Virus record (IMG/VR): IMGVR_UViG_3300045988_057496
Source: a virus
Direction: 5' to 3' (one strand)
DNA: 41,862 bases
Below are positions 2,818 through 36,582 of this stretch, piece after piece; positions within the stretch are counted from its first letter, which is position 1, and every line of letters starts with the position of its first letter. The notes below the pieces were generated by a model that saw nothing but the letters and a program-made list of their open reading frames with translations, made no database searches and was not told the origin of the DNA. Position numbers and translations under genes: made by a program.

Positions 2818-3202
2818 CCGAATGCTATTGGTAACCTTGCAATTACATAATAGCACGTTTTGTGAACATTTGCAACAGTATTTTGACACGGCGATAAGAA
2901 AAAATCTGCCTGCGGTTGTTTCACAGACAGACTTTTCACCGATTTGTCACCAGAACGCACTTGCACCCCGGCGGTAATGCAAACATGCGCGTTTGCACGT
3001 CTTTTGCGCCATGCGCGGCGTAAAAGTAACGCCGAGGCTGCAAAAACAACTTGCAGGGCTATGGGTACGCCGCTTCCTTTGGCGGGTCGGCACCGCCTTG
3101 TAAGCCCTAGCGCTTCACGCACTTGCTCGTGTCTGGAACTGGCTGGCTCAAAAGTTGGGTCAATGAAATCACCTTCCTTTTGAATCAGTTTAACTAGGAG
3201 CC
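2790..3202 (-). ncRNA. Candidate ~410-nt leftward non-coding transcript, antisense to the Cro leader
   Basis: It is bounded by the consensus promoter at 3237-3209 and the terminator at 2817-2789. It is GC-rich with many local hairpins, including two with the same ATGCGC loop (2969-2988 and 2991-3016). No SD-led ORF is present. Confidence 0.35.
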
Positions 3203-3267: not shown

Positions 3268-3471
3268 GTGCCCGAACCGTGGACTGGCCGTTTGATTGGC
3301 CGAATGCACAACAACAAAGTCACGCTGGAACAGCTTGCCGCTTATCTGGGCTGGACAAAGAGCTACTGCTCGATGATCCTGAATGGCCAGCGCAAGCCGC
3401 GCGGCATCCGCGAGAAAATGGAAGCCGCCGTCAGCGAGATCATCAAGGAAAAGGAGGACAAAACGGCATGA
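3268..3471 (+). CDS. Cro-like small HTH protein
   Basis: 67 aa, with a GTG start after GGGAGGTGG. VTLEQLAAYLGWTKSYCSMILNG is HTH-like. It is the first gene of the rightward operon, divergent from the CI-like gene. Confidence 0.7.
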   Translation: MPEPWTGRLIGRMHNNKVTLEQLAAYLGWTKSYCSMILNGQRKPRGIREKMEAAVSEIIKEKEDKTA

Positions 3472-4247
3472 GCGAATTAAACAATCTCATCCCCATTAGC
3501 TACGATAACCCGGAACGCCCTACGGTGAGCGGCCGGGAGCTGCACGACTTTTTACAGGTCAAGACGGCTTACAAAGACTGGTTTCCCCGCATGGTGGAAT
3601 ATGGCTTCACCGATGGAGAGGACTTTTGCTCAATTTTGAGCGAAAGTACTGGAGGCCGTCCGAGCACCGACCACCAGCTGACCATCCCGATGGCCAAAGA
3701 GCTCTGCATGATCCAGCGAAACGAACGAGGAAAGCAGGCCCGGCAGTATTTCTTGGCCGTGGAGGCGCAGTGGAACAGCCCGGAAGCGGTCATGCGCCGT
3801 GCGGTGCTTATCGCCCAGAAGCAGAACGACCAGCTCAAGGCCGTAAACAAACAGCTTTTGGCAGAGAACAGCGACCTGAAGCCAGATGCAGAGTATGCCA
3901 GGGCCGTGTGCATTGGCGATAACTGCCGGACGGCTACCAGCATTGCAAAGGATTACGGCATGAGCGGCGAGAAGCTGAACAGCATCCTGCACGGTCTGAA
4001 AATCCAGTGGAAGAACAGCGACGGGCAGTGGGTGTTATACGCAAAGTATAGCGGAAAAGGTTACACCAAAAACCGCAAAGGCCGTCCGTTTGAGCACAAC
4101 AGTGGCAAGATCACCACGCCAAACACCACCGTTTGGACGGAAGCGGGCCAGCGGTTTATTTATGAGCAGCTCAAGGCCATTGGCCTGACGCCCAGCATCG
4201 ACCACAAAGAGAATGTGGAACAGACCACGTTTGAAAGGGGTGCGTAA
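3468..4247 (+). CDS. Phage antirepressor (AntA/ORF6N-type N-terminus, KilA-C-type C-terminus)
   Basis: 259 aa. ATG 3468 overlaps the Cro-like stop. Motifs: RPTVSGRELHDFLQVKTAYKDWF...MAKELCMIQRNERGKQARQYF and AEYARAVCIGDNCRTATSIAKDYGMSGEKLNSILH. Confidence 0.85.
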   Translation: MSELNNLIPISYDNPERPTVSGRELHDFLQVKTAYKDWFPRMVEYGFTDGEDFCSILSESTGGRPSTDHQLTIPMAKELCMIQRNERGKQARQYFLAVEAQWNSPEAVMRRAVLIAQKQNDQLKAVNKQLLAENSDLKPDAEYARAVCIGDNCRTATSIAKDYGMSGEKLNSILHGLKIQWKNSDGQWVLYAKYSGKGYTKNRKGRPFEHNSGKITTPNTTVWTEAGQRFIYEQLKAIGLTPSIDHKENVEQTTFERGA

Positions 4248-4248
4248 T

Positions 4249-4458
4249 ATGACGCTGAACCGCCTGATCTGCGCCTGCTGCAACGTGTTTACGGGCGCAA
4301 CAAAAATCAAAGTCGTTGACAACCACGGCAAGGAGCTGTATTTCGGACTCTTGAACGATGGCTTTATCAAGGATTTTGGTGGCCTGACCGTTCGGAATTT
4401 CGAGATCGACGAGATCAAGAAAAACGGCGTCGCAAAGACGCTTACGGCATGGACTTAA
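4249..4458 (+). CDS. Hypothetical protein (69 aa)
   Basis: ATG 4249 follows GAAAGGGG. The track start at 4213 lies inside the previous gene. Confidence 0.55.
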   Translation: MTLNRLICACCNVFTGATKIKVVDNHGKELYFGLLNDGFIKDFGGLTVRNFEIDEIKKNGVAKTLTAWT

Positions 4459-12744: not shown

Positions 12745-13023
12745 GTGTCTCAATTATTCGGTATTTTGCTTTTTGTCTTTTTGATATCAATAACCGCATG
12801 GGGGCTATTTTTTGACTTCAAAAACCCATTCAAGCCACAAAAAGACCCTCGGTTGTGCGAACGATGTATCCACTTGGTCAAAAAGTTCCCAGATGGAAAC
12901 GAAAAGTACAACAGATATATTTGCTCTGTAAACAAAGAAAAAGTCAAAGGGTATGACATTTCGCCCGAATATTGCCGCGATTTTGAGGAAAGGAGCACCA
13001 ATGACCCACACATGGACACCTGA
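12745..13023 (+). CDS. AT-rich small membrane-anchored hypothetical protein
   Basis: 92 aa with a GTG start. N-terminal TM (LFGILLFVFLISITAWGLFF) and a CxxC...C pattern. Confidence 0.5.
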   Translation: MSQLFGILLFVFLISITAWGLFFDFKNPFKPQKDPRLCERCIHLVKKFPDGNEKYNRYICSVNKEKVKGYDISPEYCRDFEERSTNDPHMDT

Positions 13024-13498
13024 CACCGACACACCAAAGCCTGACAGCGGCGTGGACTACCGCATCGTCAAAGCATGGTTTCAGCAGTGCCGGGACGGTC
13101 AAAAGACCGTTGAGGCACAGCGTGCAAAAATTGCACAGATAAGGCTGCTTGCCAGCCATATCACGCCCAGCATGATGGGCATGCCTCTGGCACCGGGCAA
13201 CGGGGACAAGGTTGGAGAGGGCGCCGCAAACATCGTGGATGAGCGGCGCAGGCTCCAGCGGATGGAAACCGACCTGTGCAATCTGCGTATCGAGGCTACC
13301 CGGCGGGCATACTGCCTGTATGAGCTGCCGGAATGCGCAAAGGCCATCTGCGAATACTACGTCAACGGCAAGACGCAAACGGTCATTGCGCAGGAATCGG
13401 GCTTTCTCGACCCGCGCGTCATTCGGAGCCGGATCAAGCGAGGGCTTATCACTCTAGCGGAAATCTGGGACAGTTTTGATAAAAACACACAAAAATAA
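13001..13498 (+). CDS. Late-gene transcriptional activator candidate (ArpU/RinA/sigma-70 region-4-like)
   Basis: 165 aa, ATG 13001 after GGAAAGGAG. The C-terminal CAKAICEYYVNGKTQTVIAQESGFLDPRVIRSRIKRGLITLAEI is a region-4-type HTH. It is the last gene before the packaging module. Confidence 0.65.
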   Translation: MTHTWTPDTDTPKPDSGVDYRIVKAWFQQCRDGQKTVEAQRAKIAQIRLLASHITPSMMGMPLAPGNGDKVGEGAANIVDERRRLQRMETDLCNLRIEATRRAYCLYELPECAKAICEYYVNGKTQTVIAQESGFLDPRVIRSRIKRGLITLAEIWDSFDKNTQK

Positions 13499-13524
13499 AG
13501 CATGTTTTTATACACGCGGTGTCC

Positions 13525-13533
13525 TGTTAAAAT
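13525..13533 (+). promoter_or_regulatory. Extended -10 promoter element TGtTAAAAT
   Basis: TG 13525-13526 and TAAAAT 13528-13533. The -35 is weak. Confidence 0.35.
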
Positions 13534-13539
13534 CCTCAT

Positions 13540-13972
13540 GGATAGGCTAAAATAATTACAAGCGATTCAGCGCTTTGAGCGCGACGCTTGCTACGCGGCC
13601 TCCGAAACGGTTCCACCCGGCTGGTTTTCATGCTTTCCCGTTCCTTCCCCGTTTCGTGGGCTGCTTCTATGCGAGATTCCGAAACGGCTCCGCTCAGAGC
13701 TGCGCAACTTTGAGCGCAATGGGCAGGTTCGAGGCCTTCCTCTCCGCGCGGTTTGACTCCGCGATCTCGCACCGTAACGCGGGGCAGCTGTACCCGCAAC
13801 CGCCTGACGCATGGGGCCCATCACCCCACCGGCAACACCTCCTTTCTGGCTTTTTCTTCTCTATGTCACACGCATTTTTCCATAACAGCAGAGCCGGAAT
13901 CCTAAGCGCGCCGTTCCTTGCGCGCCGGATGTGCGTCAACAAAGCCCCGAGACCGCAAACCCGGGGCTTTTT
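13540..13972 (+). ncRNA. Candidate ~430-nt structured non-coding RNA (possible large ornate RNA class; may extend to the tRNA at 14061)
   Basis: No credible ORF: the only long ORF, 13575-14084, runs into tRNA-Trp. The region is GC-rich with many local hairpins. Internal repeats include TCCGAAACGG (13601, 13679) and TTTGAGCGC (13574, 13709). It ends at a strong terminator and lies adjacent to tRNAs. Confidence 0.45.
13941..13972 (+). terminator. Intrinsic terminator
   Basis: AAAGCCCCG (13941-13949), a 12-nt loop, then CGGGGCTTTTT (13962-13972). Confidence 0.65.
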
Positions 13973-14060
13973 CAATGCTATATGGCCGTCTGAGCGCAGT
14001 CTGGAGCGCGTGTCAGCTGAGATATTGCTGGCTGGTTCGAGTCCAAGGGCGGTGTTTTAT

Positions 14061-14135
14061 ATTCCCGTAGCTCAAGAGTGGTAGAGCAGCGGTCTCCAAA
14101 ACCGCCGGTTGCAGGTTCGAGTCCTGCCGGGAGTG
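14061..14135 (+). tRNA. trnW: tRNA-Trp (anticodon CCA)
   Basis: Hand-folded cloverleaf: acceptor ATTCCCG/CGGGAGT, D arm GCTC-aagagtggta-GAGC, anticodon arm GCGGT-CTCCAAA-ACCGC, T arm GCAGG-TTCGAGT-CCTGC, discriminator G. Confidence 0.85.
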
Positions 14136-14234
14136 CTTGCGTTGACTGGGTAGACGGAAAACGCGATAGCGGAGCATCTGGCCGCGAAAGTTCCGGATGC
14201 AGCGGTTTCACCGACATGGAGCCGCTTGTTTTAT

Positions 14235-14370
14235 GCCGCCATAGCTCAATTGGCAGAGCGCCGCCCATTTAAGGCGGGACAACGTTGGTGACACCACGGG
14301 AACATCACTGCACAGCCAACCACTGCGCACATCCATTCCGTGGGTGCTGGTTCAAATCCAGCTGGCGGCT
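14235..14370 (+). tRNA. tRNA-like gene with a 68-nt insertion at the variable-loop position; anticodon loop CATTTAA (UUU, Lys-type, with A at position 33)
   Basis: The acceptor is a perfect 7 bp (GCCGCCA/TGGCGGC). D arm GCTC-aattggca-GAGC, anticodon arm CCGCC-catttaa-GGCGG, T arm GCTGG-TTCAAAT-CCAGC. Positions 14278-14345 sit between the anticodon and T stems and can form a CCACGG/CCGTGG-closed arm. Confidence 0.5.
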
Positions 14371-14382
14371 AGCGTGATTTTA

Positions 14383-14405
14383 GAGTGTCCACTGTGGACA
14401 CTTTT
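14383..14405 (+). terminator. Intrinsic terminator after the tRNA-like gene
   Basis: AGTGTCCACtGTGGACACT followed by TTTT. Confidence 0.6.
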
Positions 14406-14422
14406 GGAGAGGAGGCATACAA

Positions 14423-14650
14423 ATGTTTGAGCGCTTGAAAGAACTGATTTGCGACATGGCAAAGTTTTTGACGCGTCTCGGCGCTGGCCTTATCCTCTCG
14501 GCCTTACCGATCAGCAACAAAGAAAGCCACTTTGTGCGCTATGCGCGACGTTTCGGTTTCCGCGCAGACCACACAAAACGCGAGCCTCGGGCAGAGATCG
14601 GAGGCCGTGGCTGTATCCAAGGAGCACGGCCTGCTATCCGTGCGGATTAA
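14423..14650 (+). CDS. Small ORF (75 aa) with a strong SD inside the RNA block; may instead be non-coding
   Basis: GGAGAGGAGG lies 7 nt before the ATG. The N-terminal half is amphipathic/hydrophobic (MFERLKELICDMAKFLTRLGAGLILSALPI). The 3' half is GC-rich with hairpins and reads like non-coding sequence. Confidence 0.3.
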   Translation: MFERLKELICDMAKFLTRLGAGLILSALPISNKESHFVRYARRFGFRADHTKREPRAEIGGRGCIQGARPAIRAD

Positions 14651-14724: not shown

Positions 14725-14726
14725 AT

Positions 14727-14800
14727 GCTGCTTTAGCTCAGTCGGCCAGAGCATCCGGCTCATAACCGGACGTGTGCAGGTTCGAGCCCTGCAAGCGGCA
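14727..14800 (+). tRNA. trnM: tRNA-Met (anticodon CAT; elongator Met or Ile2-type cannot be distinguished)
   Basis: Acceptor GCTGCTT/AAGCGGC (one G-U). D arm GCTC-agtcggcca-GAGC, anticodon arm TCCGG-CTCATAA-CCGGA, T arm GCAGG-TTCGAGC-CCTGC. Confidence 0.85.
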
Positions 14801-14870
14801 TATTCGATATTTTGACCGTTCGGATTTCCGGGCGGTTTTTCTTTTGCGTGAGTTTAGAGAGGTGGTGGCG

Positions 14871-15338
14871 GTGAGCGCGAAGCGGCTGACGGACAGGCAA
14901 AAAAAGAAGATCATTGCTGACTATGTGCAGCTTCAGAGCTACGCCAGAACCGCCAAACTGAACGACGTAGCAGAAAGCACCGTGCGGAAAATCGTGAAAG
15001 ATAATCCCAAGTGTGCGGATTTGTGCGCCTTAAAAAAAGAGCAGAACACGCAGGACATGCTTTCCTACTTAGGCAGCAAGCGCGGGGAAGCACAGGATCT
15101 TCTCGGGCTGTACCTTCAGGCGATGGCAGACCCTGACAAGATCGCAGAGGCGACGCTGCCGCAGCTGTCCACGGCGTTTGGAACCATCGTGGACAAGTTT
15201 GCTATGCTGGGAGACCAGAGCGGCATAGAAGCCCCGGACGATGGCCTGCTGGAAGCCCTGAGCGCTGCCGCAGACATCAGCCCGCCGGATGACGTGGAGA
15301 TGTTGCCGGAGGAAGAGGACGACAATGCGGAAAAGTAA
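14871..15338 (+). CDS. terS: Terminase small subunit
   Basis: 155 aa from GTG 14871 (SD AGAGAGGTGG). N-terminal HTH (LTDRQKKKIIADYVQLQSYARTAKLNDVAESTVRKIV) and an acidic C-terminus. It overlaps the start of terL. Confidence 0.75.
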   Translation: MSAKRLTDRQKKKIIADYVQLQSYARTAKLNDVAESTVRKIVKDNPKCADLCALKKEQNTQDMLSYLGSKRGEAQDLLGLYLQAMADPDKIAEATLPQLSTAFGTIVDKFAMLGDQSGIEAPDDGLLEALSAAADISPPDDVEMLPEEEDDNAEK

Positions 15339-16572
15339 CGGTTTTCGCTGGAAAGCCCTCAGCCAGCGGCAAAAGATGGTTCTTTGCTGGTGGACACCGC
15401 AGAGTGCATACAGCGGTTACAACGGCATCATTGCAGATGGCGCCATCCGATCGGGCAAGACCTTTGCCATGAGCTTTTCTTTCGTCCAGTGGGCCATGAC
15501 CTGCTACAGCGGGCAGCAGTTTGCCATGTGTGGCAAGACCATCGCCAGCTTCCGGCGCAACGTGATGGGCACGCTCAAGCAGCAGCTTGCAGCCCGTGGC
15601 TACAACGTCAAGGAGCACCGGGCAGAAAACTGCATGACCGTCAGCAAGAGCGGCAGAACCAACGAGTTTTACTTTTTCGGCGGCAAGGACGAGAGCAGCC
15701 AGGATCTGATCCAGGGCATCACCCTTGCCGGGGCATTCTTCGACGAGGTGGCCCTGATGCCGCAGAGCTTCGTCAATCAGGCCACAGCCCGATGCTCTGT
15801 CACCGGGTCAAAGTTCTGGTTTAACTGCAACCCGGGCAGCCCGCAGCACTGGTTTTATCTGGAATGGGTGCGCAAGTGCCGTTCCCGCAAGATGATGTAT
15901 CTCCATTTCACGATGGACGACAACCTGTCGCTTTCTGAGGACATCAAGGCCAGATACCGCAGCCAGTACAGCGGCGTTTTCTATCAGCGCTACATTCTGG
16001 GCCTGTGGACGGTGGCCGAGGGCCTTGTATATGACATGTTCGACCGCAAGAAGCACGTCGTTGATGAGCTGCCGGAGCTGTCACCAAAGAGCGCCTATGT
16101 GGCGTGCGACTTTGGCACCCAGAACGCAACGGTTTTTTTGCTATTCCAGAAGCAGGCAGATGCAGACTGCTGGATCGTCACCCGGGAGTACTACTACAGC
16201 GGCCGGGAACAGAAGCGGCAAAAAACCGTGGGCGAGTACGTCACAGACCTCAAGGCGTGGCTGAATGGTCTCAAGCCGGAGAGGATCATCGTTGACCCCT
16301 CTGCCCTGCCCCTGATTACAGAGCTGCGCAAGAACGGCTTTACTCAGACACCAGCAAACAACGACGTTCTGAGCGGCATTCTGGACGTGCAGACCATGCT
16401 GCAGACCGGGCGGCTGAAGATCTACAAAGACTGCAAGCACACGCTGGAAGAGTTCGGCGTGTACGCTTGGGATCCGGATAAAGACGACACCGTGCTAAAG
16501 GCCAATGACCACTGCATGGACGCTATCCGCTATTTCGTGCGCACAAAGCGCCTTGTGAAACTGAGGGATTGA
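15325..16572 (+). CDS. terL: Terminase large subunit (PBSX/Terminase_3-type)
   Basis: 415 aa. Walker A-like ADGAIRSGKT, plus LAGAFFDEVALMP and a C-terminal nuclease region (DPSALPLI...NDHCMDAIRY). Confidence 0.95.
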   Translation: MRKSNGFRWKALSQRQKMVLCWWTPQSAYSGYNGIIADGAIRSGKTFAMSFSFVQWAMTCYSGQQFAMCGKTIASFRRNVMGTLKQQLAARGYNVKEHRAENCMTVSKSGRTNEFYFFGGKDESSQDLIQGITLAGAFFDEVALMPQSFVNQATARCSVTGSKFWFNCNPGSPQHWFYLEWVRKCRSRKMMYLHFTMDDNLSLSEDIKARYRSQYSGVFYQRYILGLWTVAEGLVYDMFDRKKHVVDELPELSPKSAYVACDFGTQNATVFLLFQKQADADCWIVTREYYYSGREQKRQKTVGEYVTDLKAWLNGLKPERIIVDPSALPLITELRKNGFTQTPANNDVLSGILDVQTMLQTGRLKIYKDCKHTLEEFGVYAWDPDKDDTVLKANDHCMDAIRYFVRTKRLVKLRD

Positions 16573-20879: not shown

Positions 20880-20908
20880 TTGACTTTTGTGTAACCAAAT
20901 GTTATAAT
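20880..20908 (+). promoter_or_regulatory. Near-consensus promoter TTGACT-17-TATAAT
   Basis: TTGACT 20880-20885, 17-nt spacer, TATAAT 20903-20908. It lies immediately after the gp10-like stop. Confidence 0.6.
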
Positions 20909-22153: not shown

Positions 22154-22164
22154 TTTTTTTTTTG

Positions 22165-22197
22165 GAAGAAGCTCACATTGTGGGCTTCTTCTTTTTA
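22165..22197 (+). terminator. Intrinsic terminator closing the AT-rich cassette
   Basis: GAAGAAGC-tcacattgtgg-GCTTCTTC followed by TTTTTAT. Confidence 0.7.
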
Positions 22198-22216: not shown

Positions 22217-22293
22217 GCCGCTTTAGCTCAGGTTGGCAGAGCACCGGACTTGTAATCCGGGGGTCGTGGGTTCAAGCCCCACAGACGGCACCA
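22217..22293 (+). tRNA. trnT: tRNA-Thr (anticodon TGT), CCA encoded
   Basis: Acceptor GCCGCTT/AGACGGC (one C-A mismatch, one G-U). D arm GCTC-aggttggca-GAGC, anticodon arm CCGGA-CTTGTAA-TCCGG, T arm GTGGG-TTCAAGC-CCCAC, discriminator A then CCA. Confidence 0.8.
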
Positions 22294-35113: not shown

Positions 35114-35186
35114 GGCTATGTAGCTCAGTTGGTAGAGCAGGGCGTTACACCGCCTATTGCCGCTGGTTCGAGTCCAGCCATAGCAA
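35114..35186 (+). tRNA. Degenerate tRNA-like element (Val-UAC-like; 6-nt anticodon loop TTACAC, G1-A72 mismatch)
   Basis: D arm GCTC-agttggta-GAGC and T arm GCTGG-TTCGAGT-CCAGC are canonical. The acceptor GGCTATG/CATAGCA pairs at 6 of 7 positions. The anticodon stem GGGCG/CGCCT encloses only 6 nt. It is preceded by an extended -10 (TGgTATAAT, 35047-35055) and an 8-bp leader hairpin. Confidence 0.4.
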
Positions 35187-35316: not shown

Positions 35317-35386
35317 AATCCCCTGCTTTGCCGAAGCCCTGCGTTTCATGCGGGGTACTTTGTAGGTAAAGTAGGGGATTTTTTTG
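35317..35386. terminator. Composite hairpin, probable bidirectional terminator
   Basis: The outer stem is AATCCCCT (35317-35324)/AGGGGATT (35373-35380) and the inner stem is 35337-35355. It is followed by TTTTTTTG on the plus strand and lies just beyond the stop of minus-strand gene 35389-35712. Confidence 0.45.
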
Positions 35387-35388
35387 TT

Positions 35389-35712
35389 TTACAGTAGCTT
35401 GTAGTGCTCAGCCAACAAAAACCGGACGTATGCCGGGCAGTCGCGCTCGCCCAAACACCACCCCTGCACCGTGCGCAGAGGGATGCCTGCCCGTTTTGCA
35501 AATGCGGTCTGTGACAGACCGGTACGGTCTACCAACTCCCGCATGGACAGGTGCGCCAGTTCCCAGATGGTGGAAAGCCTTTTTTTCTCGGCGTCCAGAT
35601 CAAGACACCCGTCGGCATCATCCGGGATGCTGAGAGTGACACTGTTCAAAAAGATTTCTTTAACGGCCTTTGGGTCAGATGCCATGACGAAAAGTTCAGC
35701 TGCATTATACAT
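35389..35712 (-). CDS. XRE-type HTH regulator of the cargo island
   Basis: 107 aa. The C-terminal LSMRELVDRTGLSQTAFAKRAGIPLRTVQGWCLGERDCPAYV is an HTH. Confidence 0.75.
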   Translation of the reverse strand: MYNAAELFVMASDPKAVKEIFLNSVTLSIPDDADGCLDLDAEKKRLSTIWELAHLSMRELVDRTGLSQTAFAKRAGIPLRTVQGWCLGERDCPAYVRFLLAEHYKLL

Positions 35713-35781
35713 TGCAATTCTCCTTTTTTGATTGATAAATTCCCCGGGTGGTGTTTGCGCATCACTCGGGGATTTTTTATT

Positions 35782-35970
35782 TTATACGTTAACCCAAGCG
35801 GTATCAACCAGCTCACCGTACTGATATTTTGCCACCAGCATCTTTTTGCTGGATTCGTCCCACTTGGTAGCCTTGTATGCATACTGCTTACCAGTAACCC
35901 AACCGTCCATGCCGCAGATCACATCGCGGGCATTCCAAATCTTTTCGATCATGTTCTTGGAAAGTTTCAT
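35782..35970 (-). CDS. Small hypothetical protein (62 aa), first gene of the regulator operon
   Basis: ATG 35970 lies 7 nt after GGAGGT. The track ORF extending to 36156 is upstream read-through across the promoter. Confidence 0.55.
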   Translation of the reverse strand: MKLSKNMIEKIWNARDVICGMDGWVTGKQYAYKATKWDESSKKMLVAKYQYGELVDTAWVNV

Positions 35971-36016
35971 TTTAGTTACCTCCAGTTGATTGTGTGTGGT
36001 GTCTTTCACTGTCTTT

Positions 36017-36078
36017 ATTATACGCTCATTGAGCGTATTTGTCAAGGCTCTTTGCAAAATTTTATGCTCATTGAGTAC
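36017..36078 (-). promoter_or_regulatory. Consensus promoter TTGACA-17-TATAAT with palindromic operators
   Basis: On the minus strand, TTGACA is at 36045-36040 and TATAAT at 36022-36017. The spacer contains the perfect palindrome ACGCTCAtTGAGCGT (36022-36036). A second, degenerate copy ATGCTCAtTGAGTAC is at 36064-36078, 42 bp centre to centre. Confidence 0.65.
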
Positions 36079-36128
36079 ATTTCTTTGCGCCTGCGCGGCC
36101 CCGCTGCCGTGCGGGCGCTTTTTTATTT

Positions 36129-36160
36129 TTGGCACTCGTTTGGCATTCGTTGGCACTCAC
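36129..36160 (+). repeat. Three tandem TTGGCAYTC(g/a) repeats (10-11 bp period) upstream of the cargo operon
   Basis: ttggcactcg / tttggcattcg / ttggcactcac. This is a probable regulator array. The first pair also resembles a sigma-54 -24/-12 element (TGGCAC-N5-TgGCA). Confidence 0.5.
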
Positions 36161-36204
36161 CGCGGTTTAAAAAAGTACACTGGGTGCAAAGGGAGGGGGG
36201 TGCC

Positions 36205-36582
36205 ATGTGGCACAAGTTTAACCCGAACCCGCGCGGGAGCAGCGTCGGGGACTGCGTAGTGCGGGCGGTATCTGCGGCCACCGGTCAGAGCTGGGAGCAA
36301 GCGTATATTGCGCTGGCGCTCACCGGCTACGCCCTCGGCGATATGCCCAGCGCCAACCGCACATGGGGCGCGTACCTCCAAAAGCAGGGTTACAAGCGCC
36401 GCATGGTGGAGGCAGACTGCACCACCTGTTACACCGTGGCAGATTTTGCCCGGGAGTACCCGCGCGGCGTGTATGTACTGGGCTGCTCCGGCCACGTCCT
36501 GACCGTGATCGACGGCGTGTGGTGGGACAGCTGGGACAGTGGCGCAGAATGCCCGATTTACTACTGGTATAAGGAGGAGTAA
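36205..36582 (+). CDS. Small protein with Cys/His motifs (possible papain-fold cysteine peptidase)
   Basis: 125 aa, ATG 36205 after GGGAGGGGGG. GDCVVRAVSAATGQSWEQAY and CSGHVLTVIDGVWWDSWDSG suggest a Cys-His dyad. The track ORF from 35551 is read-through. Confidence 0.6.
   Translation: MWHKFNPNPRGSSVGDCVVRAVSAATGQSWEQAYIALALTGYALGDMPSANRTWGAYLQKQGYKRRMVEADCTTCYTVADFAREYPRGVYVLGCSGHVLTVIDGVWWDSWDSGAECPIYYWYKEE

Follow-up and report, generated by a model that had tools for sequence, protein, structure and literature searches.

GOLLD (RF01998) occurs in phages and prophages beside tRNA islands, and its expression rises during lysis; it consists of a variable 5' region, a linker able to hold tRNAs, and a conserved 3' region (bioRxiv 10.1101/2024.12.08.627333). 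ROOL (RF03087) is another large structured RNA of phages and prophages, often located near tRNAs and with no function assigned (PMC5737381). Here we analyzed the IMG/VR virus record IMGVR_UViG_3300045988_057496 (41,862 nucleotides [nt] in all, referred to as the window), in which an initial annotation had placed a structured non-coding RNA, possibly of the ROOL or GOLLD class, between a late-activator gene and tRNA-Trp (positions 13499 to 14060). By comparing related phages, we show that the interval carries a conserved, structured, and modular non-coding RNA, apparently transcribed from the plus strand at the predicted head of the late operon. This RNA is absent from Rfam and is a smaller relative in kind to the phage tRNA-island RNAs.

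The interval was compared with all 4,227 models of Rfam 15, using a cutoff of E ≤ 10 for positions 13300 to 14500 of the window and for positions 3500 to 4450 of a related contig (L016; contigs and their loci are given L numbers), and the gathering score for the whole window and 12 diverse relatives. Only tRNAs and noise were returned, and the proposed membership of ROOL or GOLLD was thus not borne out. The alternative offered by the initial annotation, either an analogue of that class or a new phage RNA expressed late, describes it better, and the context (a phage, a tRNA island) agrees with it. Full-text literature searches gave no description of this RNA, the unnamed candidates in a collection of more than 10,000 candidate viral RNAs (PMC10690425) not having been compared.

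The interval 13499-14060 is non-coding. The upstream open reading frame (ORF) ends at 13498, and tRNA-Trp bounds the other side. None of the ORFs of the region matched Pfam or PHROG; an NCBIfam search, which covered the neighboring genes only, returned nothing. The longest ORF (169 amino acids [aa], 13575-14084, plus strand) runs into tRNA-Trp, and three minus-strand ORFs of 77 to 93 aa are also present. In relatives, the spacer measures 431 to 564 nt, multiples of three are not favored, and indels of any length occur. These results agree with the earlier statement that the region holds no credible ORF. A protein gene, intact or frameshifted, could point to these four ORFs and to the plus strand, which is pyrimidine-rich across the interval, unlike the flanking genes, as expected for a minus-strand gene. 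However, the ORFs lack database matches, the long one enters a tRNA, the indels show no 3-nt periodicity, and whole blocks are replaced or inverted with RNA pairing preserved, so that we give this explanation next to no credence. Folding of the single sequence gave only a mild excess over shuffled sequences (z = -2.3 on the plus strand and -1.0 on the minus strand).

We then relied on relatives. In IMG/VR, 326 stretches with relatives of the upstream protein were confirmed, and 80 of them were taken for analysis. The order of upstream gene, 431- to 564-nt spacer, and tRNA-Trp was kept in 74 of the 81 loci first examined (the 80 stretches and MT839005). A pattern scan for a tRNA-like element before tRNA-Trp gave at least 120 further loci, a scan for a variant junction gave 42 loci, and distant homologues of the upstream protein (39-51% identical) led to three ENA contigs with the same RNA. 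The same architecture was also found in a lineage with a different terS. In total, the RNA is kept in several hundred IMG/VR and ENA phage contigs, from uncultivated gut phages. Among annotated phage records, the only match was MT839005, an unannotated 4.6-kb fragment; of two pattern scans of genome contigs, one gave no matches and the other chance matches only.

The 3' domain (13805-13938, plus strand) forms a three-way junction closed by helix S1 (UGACGCA, 13805-13811; UGCGUCA, 13932-13938). Its arms are Sx (13813-13827), S2 (CCGGC, 13829-13833; GCCGG, 13893-13897), and S5, which has an AUCC...GGAU base (13899-13930) and a distal GCGCGC/GCGCGC helix (13906-13925). The junction nucleotides CAUGG, AAUCC, and GGAUG are conserved, and minimum free energy folds of eight divergent 3' domains recover the common architecture. 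Because a global MAFFT alignment of the 3' domain and of the 5' hairpin P1 misregisters helices between lineages, formal counts were taken from lineage-level alignments and from hand-curated cross-lineage strand tables. In 67 unambiguously aligned sequences of the short form, 97.2% of the cells in the 3' domain helices and the terminator were paired, compared with 28-45% when the partner strand was slid. The S1 pair 5-113 was GC in 36, GU in 23, and AU in 8 sequences with no A.C, and a pair in the S5 base was CG in 33 and UA in 33. A positional chance test of S2 in eight lineages gave a combined value of ~1e-5 (Fisher's method, by hand from the p values per type). Across lineages, we counted distinct complementary versions of S2 (8), distal S5 (8), the terminator T1 (7), the acceptor stem (10) and T stem (9) of the tRNA-like element TLS-A, and the outer (4) and inner (5) helices of P1. 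In the hand-curated tables, strands from the same lineage paired at 96-100% and strands swapped between lineages at 50-73%. Since G.U pairs are frequent and A.C almost absent, the folded strand is the plus-strand RNA.

The 3' domain is followed by T1 (13941-13972, plus strand), a predicted intrinsic terminator with a 9-bp stem and UUUUU (AAAGCCCCG-12-nt loop-CGGGGCUUUUU). A simple terminator scanner missed T1 because of the 12-nt loop. Seven complementary versions of the stem were found, each followed by a U tract, and pair 127-139 was CG in 40, UA in 24, and UG in 3 sequences. T1 has the G+C-rich hairpin directly before a U tract, conserved in place, that is expected of an intrinsic terminator, and the strong terminator of the initial annotation was recovered, with compensatory stems. 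The last ~75 nt of the annotated interval lie 3' of T1 and make up a separate tRNA-like element. A riboswitch or attenuator with an antiterminator was also considered and rejected, as an alternative pairing to the 5' strand of T1 exists only in the window subgroup (CGGGGC in the hairpin Ha) and is not conserved.

At the 5' end, a -10-like hexamer, TAAAAT, was found at 13548-13553 (plus strand). A TAAAAT, TAGAAT, or TATCAT hexamer ends 6 nt before P1 in nearly all lineages, often as TGnTAAAAT, and the sequence 5' of it is lineage-specific. Promoter activity of this hexamer is inferred from its conserved position, and transcription is predicted to start at or just before P1. The initial annotation had chosen an extended -10, TGTTAAAAT, which is indeed present at 13525-13533; however, it lies 23 nt upstream of the positionally conserved -10 and occurs only in the subgroup of the window (L002-L015). 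P1 (13560-13589, plus strand) consists of an outer helix, AAGCG/CGCUU, around the hairpin GCGC-UUUGA-GCGC. Elsewhere, the outer helix is AAGCGG/CCGCUU or CAUCGG/CCGAUG, two unrelated sequence types, and the inner hairpins include CCGC/GCGG, UCGC/GCGA, and GCC/GGC. P2 (13595-13664, plus strand) is a long hairpin with a base of 15-16 bp, GCGGCCUCCGAAACGG/CCGUUUCGUGGGCUGC, one C.U 1x1 mismatch, and a C/U-rich apex. Among 19 representatives analyzed by RNAalifold and pair counts, 98.2% of P2 cells were paired, compared with 35-48% when the partner was slid by one to three columns. Both sides had changed in 6 of the 15 pairs, and 34 G.U cells stood against 2 A.C cells. The covariation score was 0.326, compared with 0.158 in shuffled alignments, and none of 500 shuffles reached the observed value. 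The base of P2 is conserved in sequence and not merely in pairing.

Covariation was thus found in P2, S1, the S5 base, and the terminator, and together with the position it supports the central claim of the initial annotation, a structured non-coding RNA beside phage tRNAs and upstream of terS. The sequence features listed there were all found in place, and the three hairpins it quoted are real, being the T arm of TLS-A (13747-13763), Ha (13778-13798), and distal S5 (13906-13925). The modular build, the embedded tRNA-like cassettes, and an anti-Shine-Dalgarno-like motif go beyond it.

Some hairpins showed reversals. The apex of P2 is reverse-complemented in L070, L079, and L080, and the loop of T1 in L022, L024, L039, and others, with unchanged stems in both cases; the reversals are exact (GGCGGAGAACC versus GGTTCTCCGCC) and are hairpin inversions at the DNA level. 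In addition, two copies of TCCGAAACGG are present. One, at 13601-13610, forms the 5' strand of P2; the other, at 13678-13687, lies where the TLS-A interior begins, is limited to this cassette type (also in L158), and might replace the first in pairing with the 3' strand of P2. A site acting as DNA, in which inverted and direct repeats (CGAAACG three times, and others) bind the terminase small subunit (pac or cos) or a late regulator, would suit a region upstream of terS with repeated words, TCCGAAACGG among them, and with hairpin apices inverted by a DNA-level event. However, G.U is tolerated and A.C is not, which is strand-specific as for RNA and unlike a site in duplex DNA read by protein. 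Moreover, helix sequences differ wholly between lineages with complementarity kept, the second TCCGAAACGG is limited to one cassette type, and ~0.9-1.3 kb separates the region from terS in the window. We therefore regard a DNA site as highly improbable.

Between the 5' hairpins and the 3' domain lies a slot for tRNA-like cassettes. It is preceded by a linker, UUCUAU (13665-13670, plus strand), which is nearly invariant in all lineages, stands directly before the cassette, and may serve as an RNase P leader. In the window, the slot holds TLS-A (13671-13773, plus strand), with the acceptor stem GCGAGAU/AUCUCGC, the T arm CGCGG-UUUGACU-CCGCG, a discriminator A followed by CC, and a 69-nt interior that is not tRNA. 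Whatever the slot holds, UAU is immediately followed by a 7-bp acceptor stem, and a T arm and an NCC(A/G) tail are present. Across phages, we found at least 10 acceptor stems (all 7/7 paired) and nine T stems, all paired; at least seven unrelated TLS-A bodies occur, with interiors of 19 to 105 nt that are unrelated in sequence. In other phages, slot elements reached 44-51 bits with the Rfam tRNA model (RF00005; threshold, ≥29 bits). Those of L143 and L123 score as tRNA at 49-51 bits and have an 8-nt anticodon loop. These tRNA-scored elements lie at 5780-5853 of L143 and at 4383-4456 (minus strand) of L123, with another in L150; ARAGORN reads a four-base "attg" in this type, which has an A.A mismatch in the anticodon stem and may be a quadruplet-reading or non-decoding tRNA. 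A tRNA with a long extra arm fills the slot in L094, L130, and L197, and TLS-B, ending in GGCGGC-A-CCA, fills it in ~37 loci. The cassette is followed by an optional hairpin, Ha (CGCGGG-GCAGCUGUA-CCCGC(A), 13778-13798, plus strand), which the short form lacks and which is represented in other lineages by GCCGC/GCGGC, CGCUGC/GCAGCG, or GCCGCC/GGCGGU.

In the window, TLS-B (13985-14054, plus strand) lies 3' of T1. It has the acceptor stem GCCGUCU/GGGCGGU, a D arm, GCGC-AGUCUGGA-GCGC, with GG, and the T loop UUCGAGU on a 3-bp stem; the T-loop-like GGTTCGAG at 14034 is the T loop of this element. For TLS-A and TLS-B of the window, ARAGORN made no call and the Rfam tRNA model gave no match even at E ≤ 10, and both elements lack a canonical 5-bp anticodon stem with a 7-nt loop and a conserved anticodon. 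They do share with tRNAs, in which the T loop reads UUCRANU, the 7-bp acceptor stem, the T arm, and the discriminator with CC(A), the tail of TLS-B being ACCA when it occupies the slot. Among 72 unique copies of TLS-B, the anticodon arm occurs in at least three unrelated self-complementary versions (GUCAGC/GCUGGC, CGUGU/ACACG, and GUGC/GCAC), with variable "anticodon" loops of 9, 6, or 10 nt. Because of these unrelated versions, TLS-B cannot decode. UAU stands directly before +1 in five of the seven tRNAs or tRNA-like elements of the window, the exceptions being TLS-B, with one extra G after UAU, and an element at 35114, with no UAU. Two other identities were ruled out: TLS-B is not an attP site, as the integrase gene (39657-40793) is 26 kb away and the element has a complete tRNA shape rather than that of a 3' fragment, and the RNA is not a tmRNA, as ARAGORN found none and no Rfam match was obtained.

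These elements could also be read as a decayed tRNA operon, in which the cassettes are degenerating tRNA genes, the hairpins are spacers or processing signals, and canonical tRNAs are the sole functional product. The continuum from real tRNAs to tRNA-like remnants in the slot and its flanks would fit this, as would the mosaic nature of phage tRNA clusters. By contrast, TLS-B is ~96% conserved across lineages whose neighboring protein is only ~60% identical, the helices keep their pairing through compensatory changes, ACCUCC and the junction nucleotides are conserved, and one lineage retains the whole RNA without a canonical tRNA-Trp downstream. Taken together, these four points indicate purifying selection on the parts that are not tRNA, and decay appears quite improbable.

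The 5' domains, cassettes, and 3' domains combine differently between phages. In L327 (of whose type L328 is a second contig), L329, and L360, the 5' domain is followed directly by TLS-B and tRNA-Trp, without a 3' domain or T1, and in one lineage, the complete RNA lies directly before terS without tRNA-Trp. This modularity bears on whether the locus encodes an ornate RNA of the GOLLD or ROOL kind, that is, an intact single fold, perhaps self-assembling, with a linked tRNA-like module and a shared function. In its favor, the setting is the same (in a phage, beside a tRNA island, and probably expressed late), the layout of a 5' region, a tRNA-capable linker, and a conserved 3' region is that of GOLLD, and multi-helix junctions have conserved junction nucleotides. 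However, the GOLLD and ROOL models were unmatched at E ≤ 10, and the length is ~330-560 nt, compared with ~580 nt for ROOL and >800 nt for GOLLD. The free reassortment of 5' and 3' domains and the dispensable 3' domain argue against an integrated fold. No pseudoknots or covariation between domains were found, although no systematic search for them was made. We consider an ornate RNA of this kind improbable.

We examined the genes around the RNA for clues to its expression. The upstream gene (12953-13498, plus strand) encodes 181 aa, probably 165 aa from a Met at 13001. The protein matched PHROG 36, "transcriptional regulator," at E = 1.6e-5, and one homologue carries the nr name DUF1492; Pfam, NCBIfam, and a PDB sequence search gave zero matches. 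DUF1492/LtrB, RinA, ArpU, and other Ltr proteins are encoded directly before terS, belong to the Ltr late-activator superfamily, and activate a single promoter in the ltr-terS gap, from which the whole late cluster is driven (PMC3753634). The sequence families considered for the superfamily were RinA, ArpU, Sigma70_r4, DUF1492, and LtrC. The place of the upstream gene, just 5' of the gap before terS, is that of an ltr gene. Its product is tentatively a member of this superfamily, a weak assignment because it comes from one PHROG match and one database name only. In the window, the gap to terS is 1.37 kb and is occupied by RNA genes. After T1 follow TLS-B, tRNA-Trp, a hairpin with the terminator-like T2, the long-arm tRNA, a 75-aa ORF, tRNA-Met (14726-14801; Rfam start, 14727), T3, and terS. 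T3 (14814-14845, plus strand), a strong intrinsic terminator in the terminator scan, ends 25 nt before the terS start (GTG at 14871). A promoter would not fit into this distance, and transcripts of the late genes must therefore run through T1, T2, and T3.

We favor, with somewhat less than even confidence, the reading that a late primary transcript is punctuated by tRNA-like cassettes and cut into separate stable RNAs, with some read-through to the late genes. The segment ~13555-13972 would be transcribed first in the late operon, as its non-coding leader. The late promoter, with its -10 at 13548-13553, would be switched on by the Ltr-type product of the gene just 5', and transcription would start at P1. 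Host tRNA-processing enzymes would cut the primary transcript, RNase P at UAU|G before the cassette and RNase Z or 3' exonucleases after the A-CC tail. Three stable products would result: a 5' hairpin RNA of ~110 nt, a tRNA-like RNA, and an RNA of ~200 nt that comprises Ha and the 3' domain and ends at T1. Read-through of T1, T2, and T3 by some polymerases would supply TLS-B, the tRNAs from tRNA-Trp onward, and the late mRNA of terS-terL. In the least certain step, ACCUCC of the 3' RNA would pair with Shine-Dalgarno sequences of the GGAGGU type and modulate translation late in infection; alternatively, the 3' RNA might bind a factor that recognizes the 16S 3' tail.

Several observations lead us to this reading. 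A late leader is favored because an Ltr-like gene lies upstream, the -10 is fixed before P1, and no promoter fits between T3 and terS. Processing at the slot is proposed because elements that score as tRNAs in Rfam sit there in some phages and need excision to work; it is further favored because the acceptor stem, T arm, and NCC(A/G) tail are kept and UAU directly precedes most of the tRNAs and tRNA-like elements of the window. Separate RNAs are favored because the modules reassort independently, three loci lack the 3' domain, and the 3' part has the shape of a small RNA that ends at a terminator.

The last step concerns a stretch inside the S2 arm, CACCUCCUUUCU (13836-13847, plus strand), which is anti-Shine-Dalgarno-like and predicted to be largely unpaired. 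Of 107 unique 3' domains, 101 contained ACCUCC, which was flanked by at least nine different sequence contexts and lay mostly in a hairpin or internal loop. A complementary GGAGG was found in cis in only 14 of the 107. ACCUCC is the anti-Shine-Dalgarno core, and CACCUCCUUUCU matches the 3' tail of 16S rRNA (GAUCACCUCCUUUCU).

Other points weigh against the cut late transcript. CCUCC is absent from five unique 3' domains, and the L330 copy reads CCCUUCUU there; any C/U-rich loop pairs with Shine-Dalgarno sequences, so that no specific target can be named. The cassettes of the window were unrecognized as tRNAs by ARAGORN and Rfam, and with a T stem of only 3 bp in TLS-B, recognition by RNase P and RNase Z is plausible at best. 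We deduced the promoter, termination at T1, the positions of cleavage, and the persistence of the products from the nucleotide sequence, and the Ltr assignment is weak. Furthermore, the sequence conservation of the P2 base hints at a specific partner outside the model, which a mere 5' fragment would not need.

Conservation of this kind would be expected if a protein or polymerase read the site, and it figures in another explanation, an antitermination leader. RNAs of the put and nut type must stay tethered to the elongating polymerase, and HK022 put is a promoter-proximal pair of hairpins. P1 and P2, either by themselves or together with the upstream protein, would do what nut does in lambda and put does in HK022: polymerase would pass T1-T3 and later terminators, and the rest of the RNA would be cargo. 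Three intrinsic terminators do lie between the sole plausible late promoter and terS, with no room for a new promoter, and the structural module contains one more strong terminator. P1 and P2 start at the predicted +1 and precede T1-T3, a promoter-proximal placement, and the 5' domain is the universal module, present also in loci without the 3' domain and T1. However, the tRNA-like cassette, a real tRNA in some phages, follows P2 immediately, and cleavage there would cut the tether. No described antitermination RNA was matched in Rfam, late expression is equally well explained by leaky termination, and the role described for Ltr proteins is promoter activation rather than antitermination (PMC3753634). 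Antitermination is unlikely, although it is the main rival.

A bolder extension of the cut late transcript is that the RNA belongs to an undescribed class of phage translational-hijack RNAs, in which a late modular transcript joins a tRNA mimic to a mimic of the 16S 3' tail (ACCUCC, CACCUCCUUUCU here). It would titrate Shine-Dalgarno mRNAs or a factor of the anti-Shine-Dalgarno tail (e.g., bS21) and so reprogram host translation at the switch to virion production, and swapping of the tRNA-like cassettes would allow adaptation to different hosts or defenses. We hold this to be distinctly unlikely as stated. Selection clearly acts on both the motif and the cassettes in hundreds of phages, and known families offer no explanation for them.

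The surrounding tRNA island has structured elements of its own. tRNA-Trp (CCA; 14061-14136, plus strand; called by ARAGORN; 59.5 bits with the Rfam tRNA model) is its first canonical tRNA. The stretch from it to the long-arm tRNA (14137-14234) holds a further conserved structured element, in which the hairpin CAUCUGG-CCGCGAAAGUU-CCGGAUG is followed by the terminator-like hairpin T2 of the terminator scan (14175-14234, plus strand; fold z = -3.2); L329 has a compensatory GUGUCUGG/CCGGACAC in the hairpin between tRNA-Trp and T2. The long-arm tRNA (14235-14370, plus strand) is a cloverleaf with an extra arm of ~62 nt in the variable region (50.2 bits with the Rfam tRNA model; fold z = -3.4; no ARAGORN call). 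Its anticodon loop is CAUUUAA, with A at the position where U33 is expected. Its relatives occupy the slot of the leader RNA in other phages, with the loop GAGUUAA in L094.

The window is a temperate siphovirus, with an integrase gene (39657-40793) and genes for an antirepressor, an SPP1-type portal, and a tape-measure protein. Its TerL (15289-16572) falls in a 90%-identity cluster to which public sequencing runs contribute 4,919 sequences, a sign that phages of this group are very common, and the named TerL homologues, ~60% identical, are PBSX-family terminases and from Bacillota prophages. The host is probably one of the gut Clostridia. The strong terminator in the structural module (22164-22192) is preceded by a near-consensus sigma-70 promoter, TTGACT-17-TATAAT with TG (20880-20908), and followed by tRNA-Thr (22217-22293); the segment 20880-22293 resembles an inserted, separately transcribed cassette. 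A tRNA-like gene at 35114-35186 (47 bits in Rfam; ARAGORN reads a 2-nt "anticodon") lies 130 nt 5' of a DUF3800-VIII RNA (35317-35380; 72.6 bits). The ORF 3' of that RNA (35551-36582) had no Pfam match, and no DUF3800 protein was seen. A FuFi-1 RNA (2900-3122, minus strand; 70.5 bits, full length, with its own terminator) adjoins the antirepressor gene (3279-4247).

For annotation, the RNA accounts for the "empty" gap of 0.5-1.3 kb upstream of terS in this phage group, and it bears on how temperate phages of Gram-positive bacteria get late transcription past several terminators. The RNA is smaller and simpler than GOLLD and ROOL, and its modular build gives handles for experiments: a constant place at the head of the late packaging genes, behind an Ltr-type regulator; a slot that swaps tRNAs and mimics; a short conserved motif identical to the sequence with which ribosomes dock onto mRNA; and natural variants that lack a domain. 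It could make the function of tRNA-linked phage RNAs testable.

Finally, we compared the locus with known systems. Like GOLLD, it is a phage RNA located beside tRNA-Trp, with a slot for tRNAs or tRNA-like cassettes between its 5' and 3' domains. Unlike GOLLD, whose Rfam model it fails to match, it measures ~415 nt in the window, half the size or less. Where GOLLD has a multi-pseudoknot fold in its 3' part, the present RNA has a simple three-way junction; moreover, its modules are exchanged between phages, some of which do without the 3' domain. GOLLD assembles as a 14-mer cage. Like ROOL, it is a structured phage RNA near tRNAs. Apart from the unmatched model, embedded tRNAs are not described for ROOL, and the consensus here consists of one three-way junction and the cloverleaf-like junction of the cassette, pseudoknots not having been searched for systematically.

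In lambda, the late leader (pR'-6S RNA-tR' with Q) is a short non-coding RNA made from the late promoter and stopped by an intrinsic terminator ahead of all late genes. The present RNA likewise appears to be a terminator-ended late-promoter transcript ahead of late genes, and its promoter-proximal hairpins recall put. By contrast, it is far more conserved and structured than the 6S leader, a cassette after the hairpins would cut the tether on which put depends, and the upstream protein resembles Ltr activators rather than Q. Non-decoding elements with an acceptor stem and a T arm, maturation by tRNA enzymes, and co-transcription with phage tRNAs, as proposed here, are known from T4 tRNA-cluster stable RNAs (species 1 and 2) and other tRNA-like RNAs such as the tRNA-like domain of tmRNA and the bacterial Y RNA YrlA. 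The RNA here had no significant Rfam match to them, with only a trace of YrlA (16 bits, E = 2.8) over TLS-B in one relative, and it is without a G3.U70 pair, a tag reading frame, or a Ro-binding stem. In the Firmicute small RNAs RNAIII, RoxS, and RsaE, C-rich loops pair with Shine-Dalgarno sequences. The 3' part of the present RNA resembles these in being a structured RNA, predicted to end at a terminator, that exposes a C/U-rich motif complementary to GGAGG; unlike theirs, its motif is ACCUCC, extended in the window to CACCUCCUUUCU, the sequence of the 16S 3' tail, and it would be part of a phage late leader.

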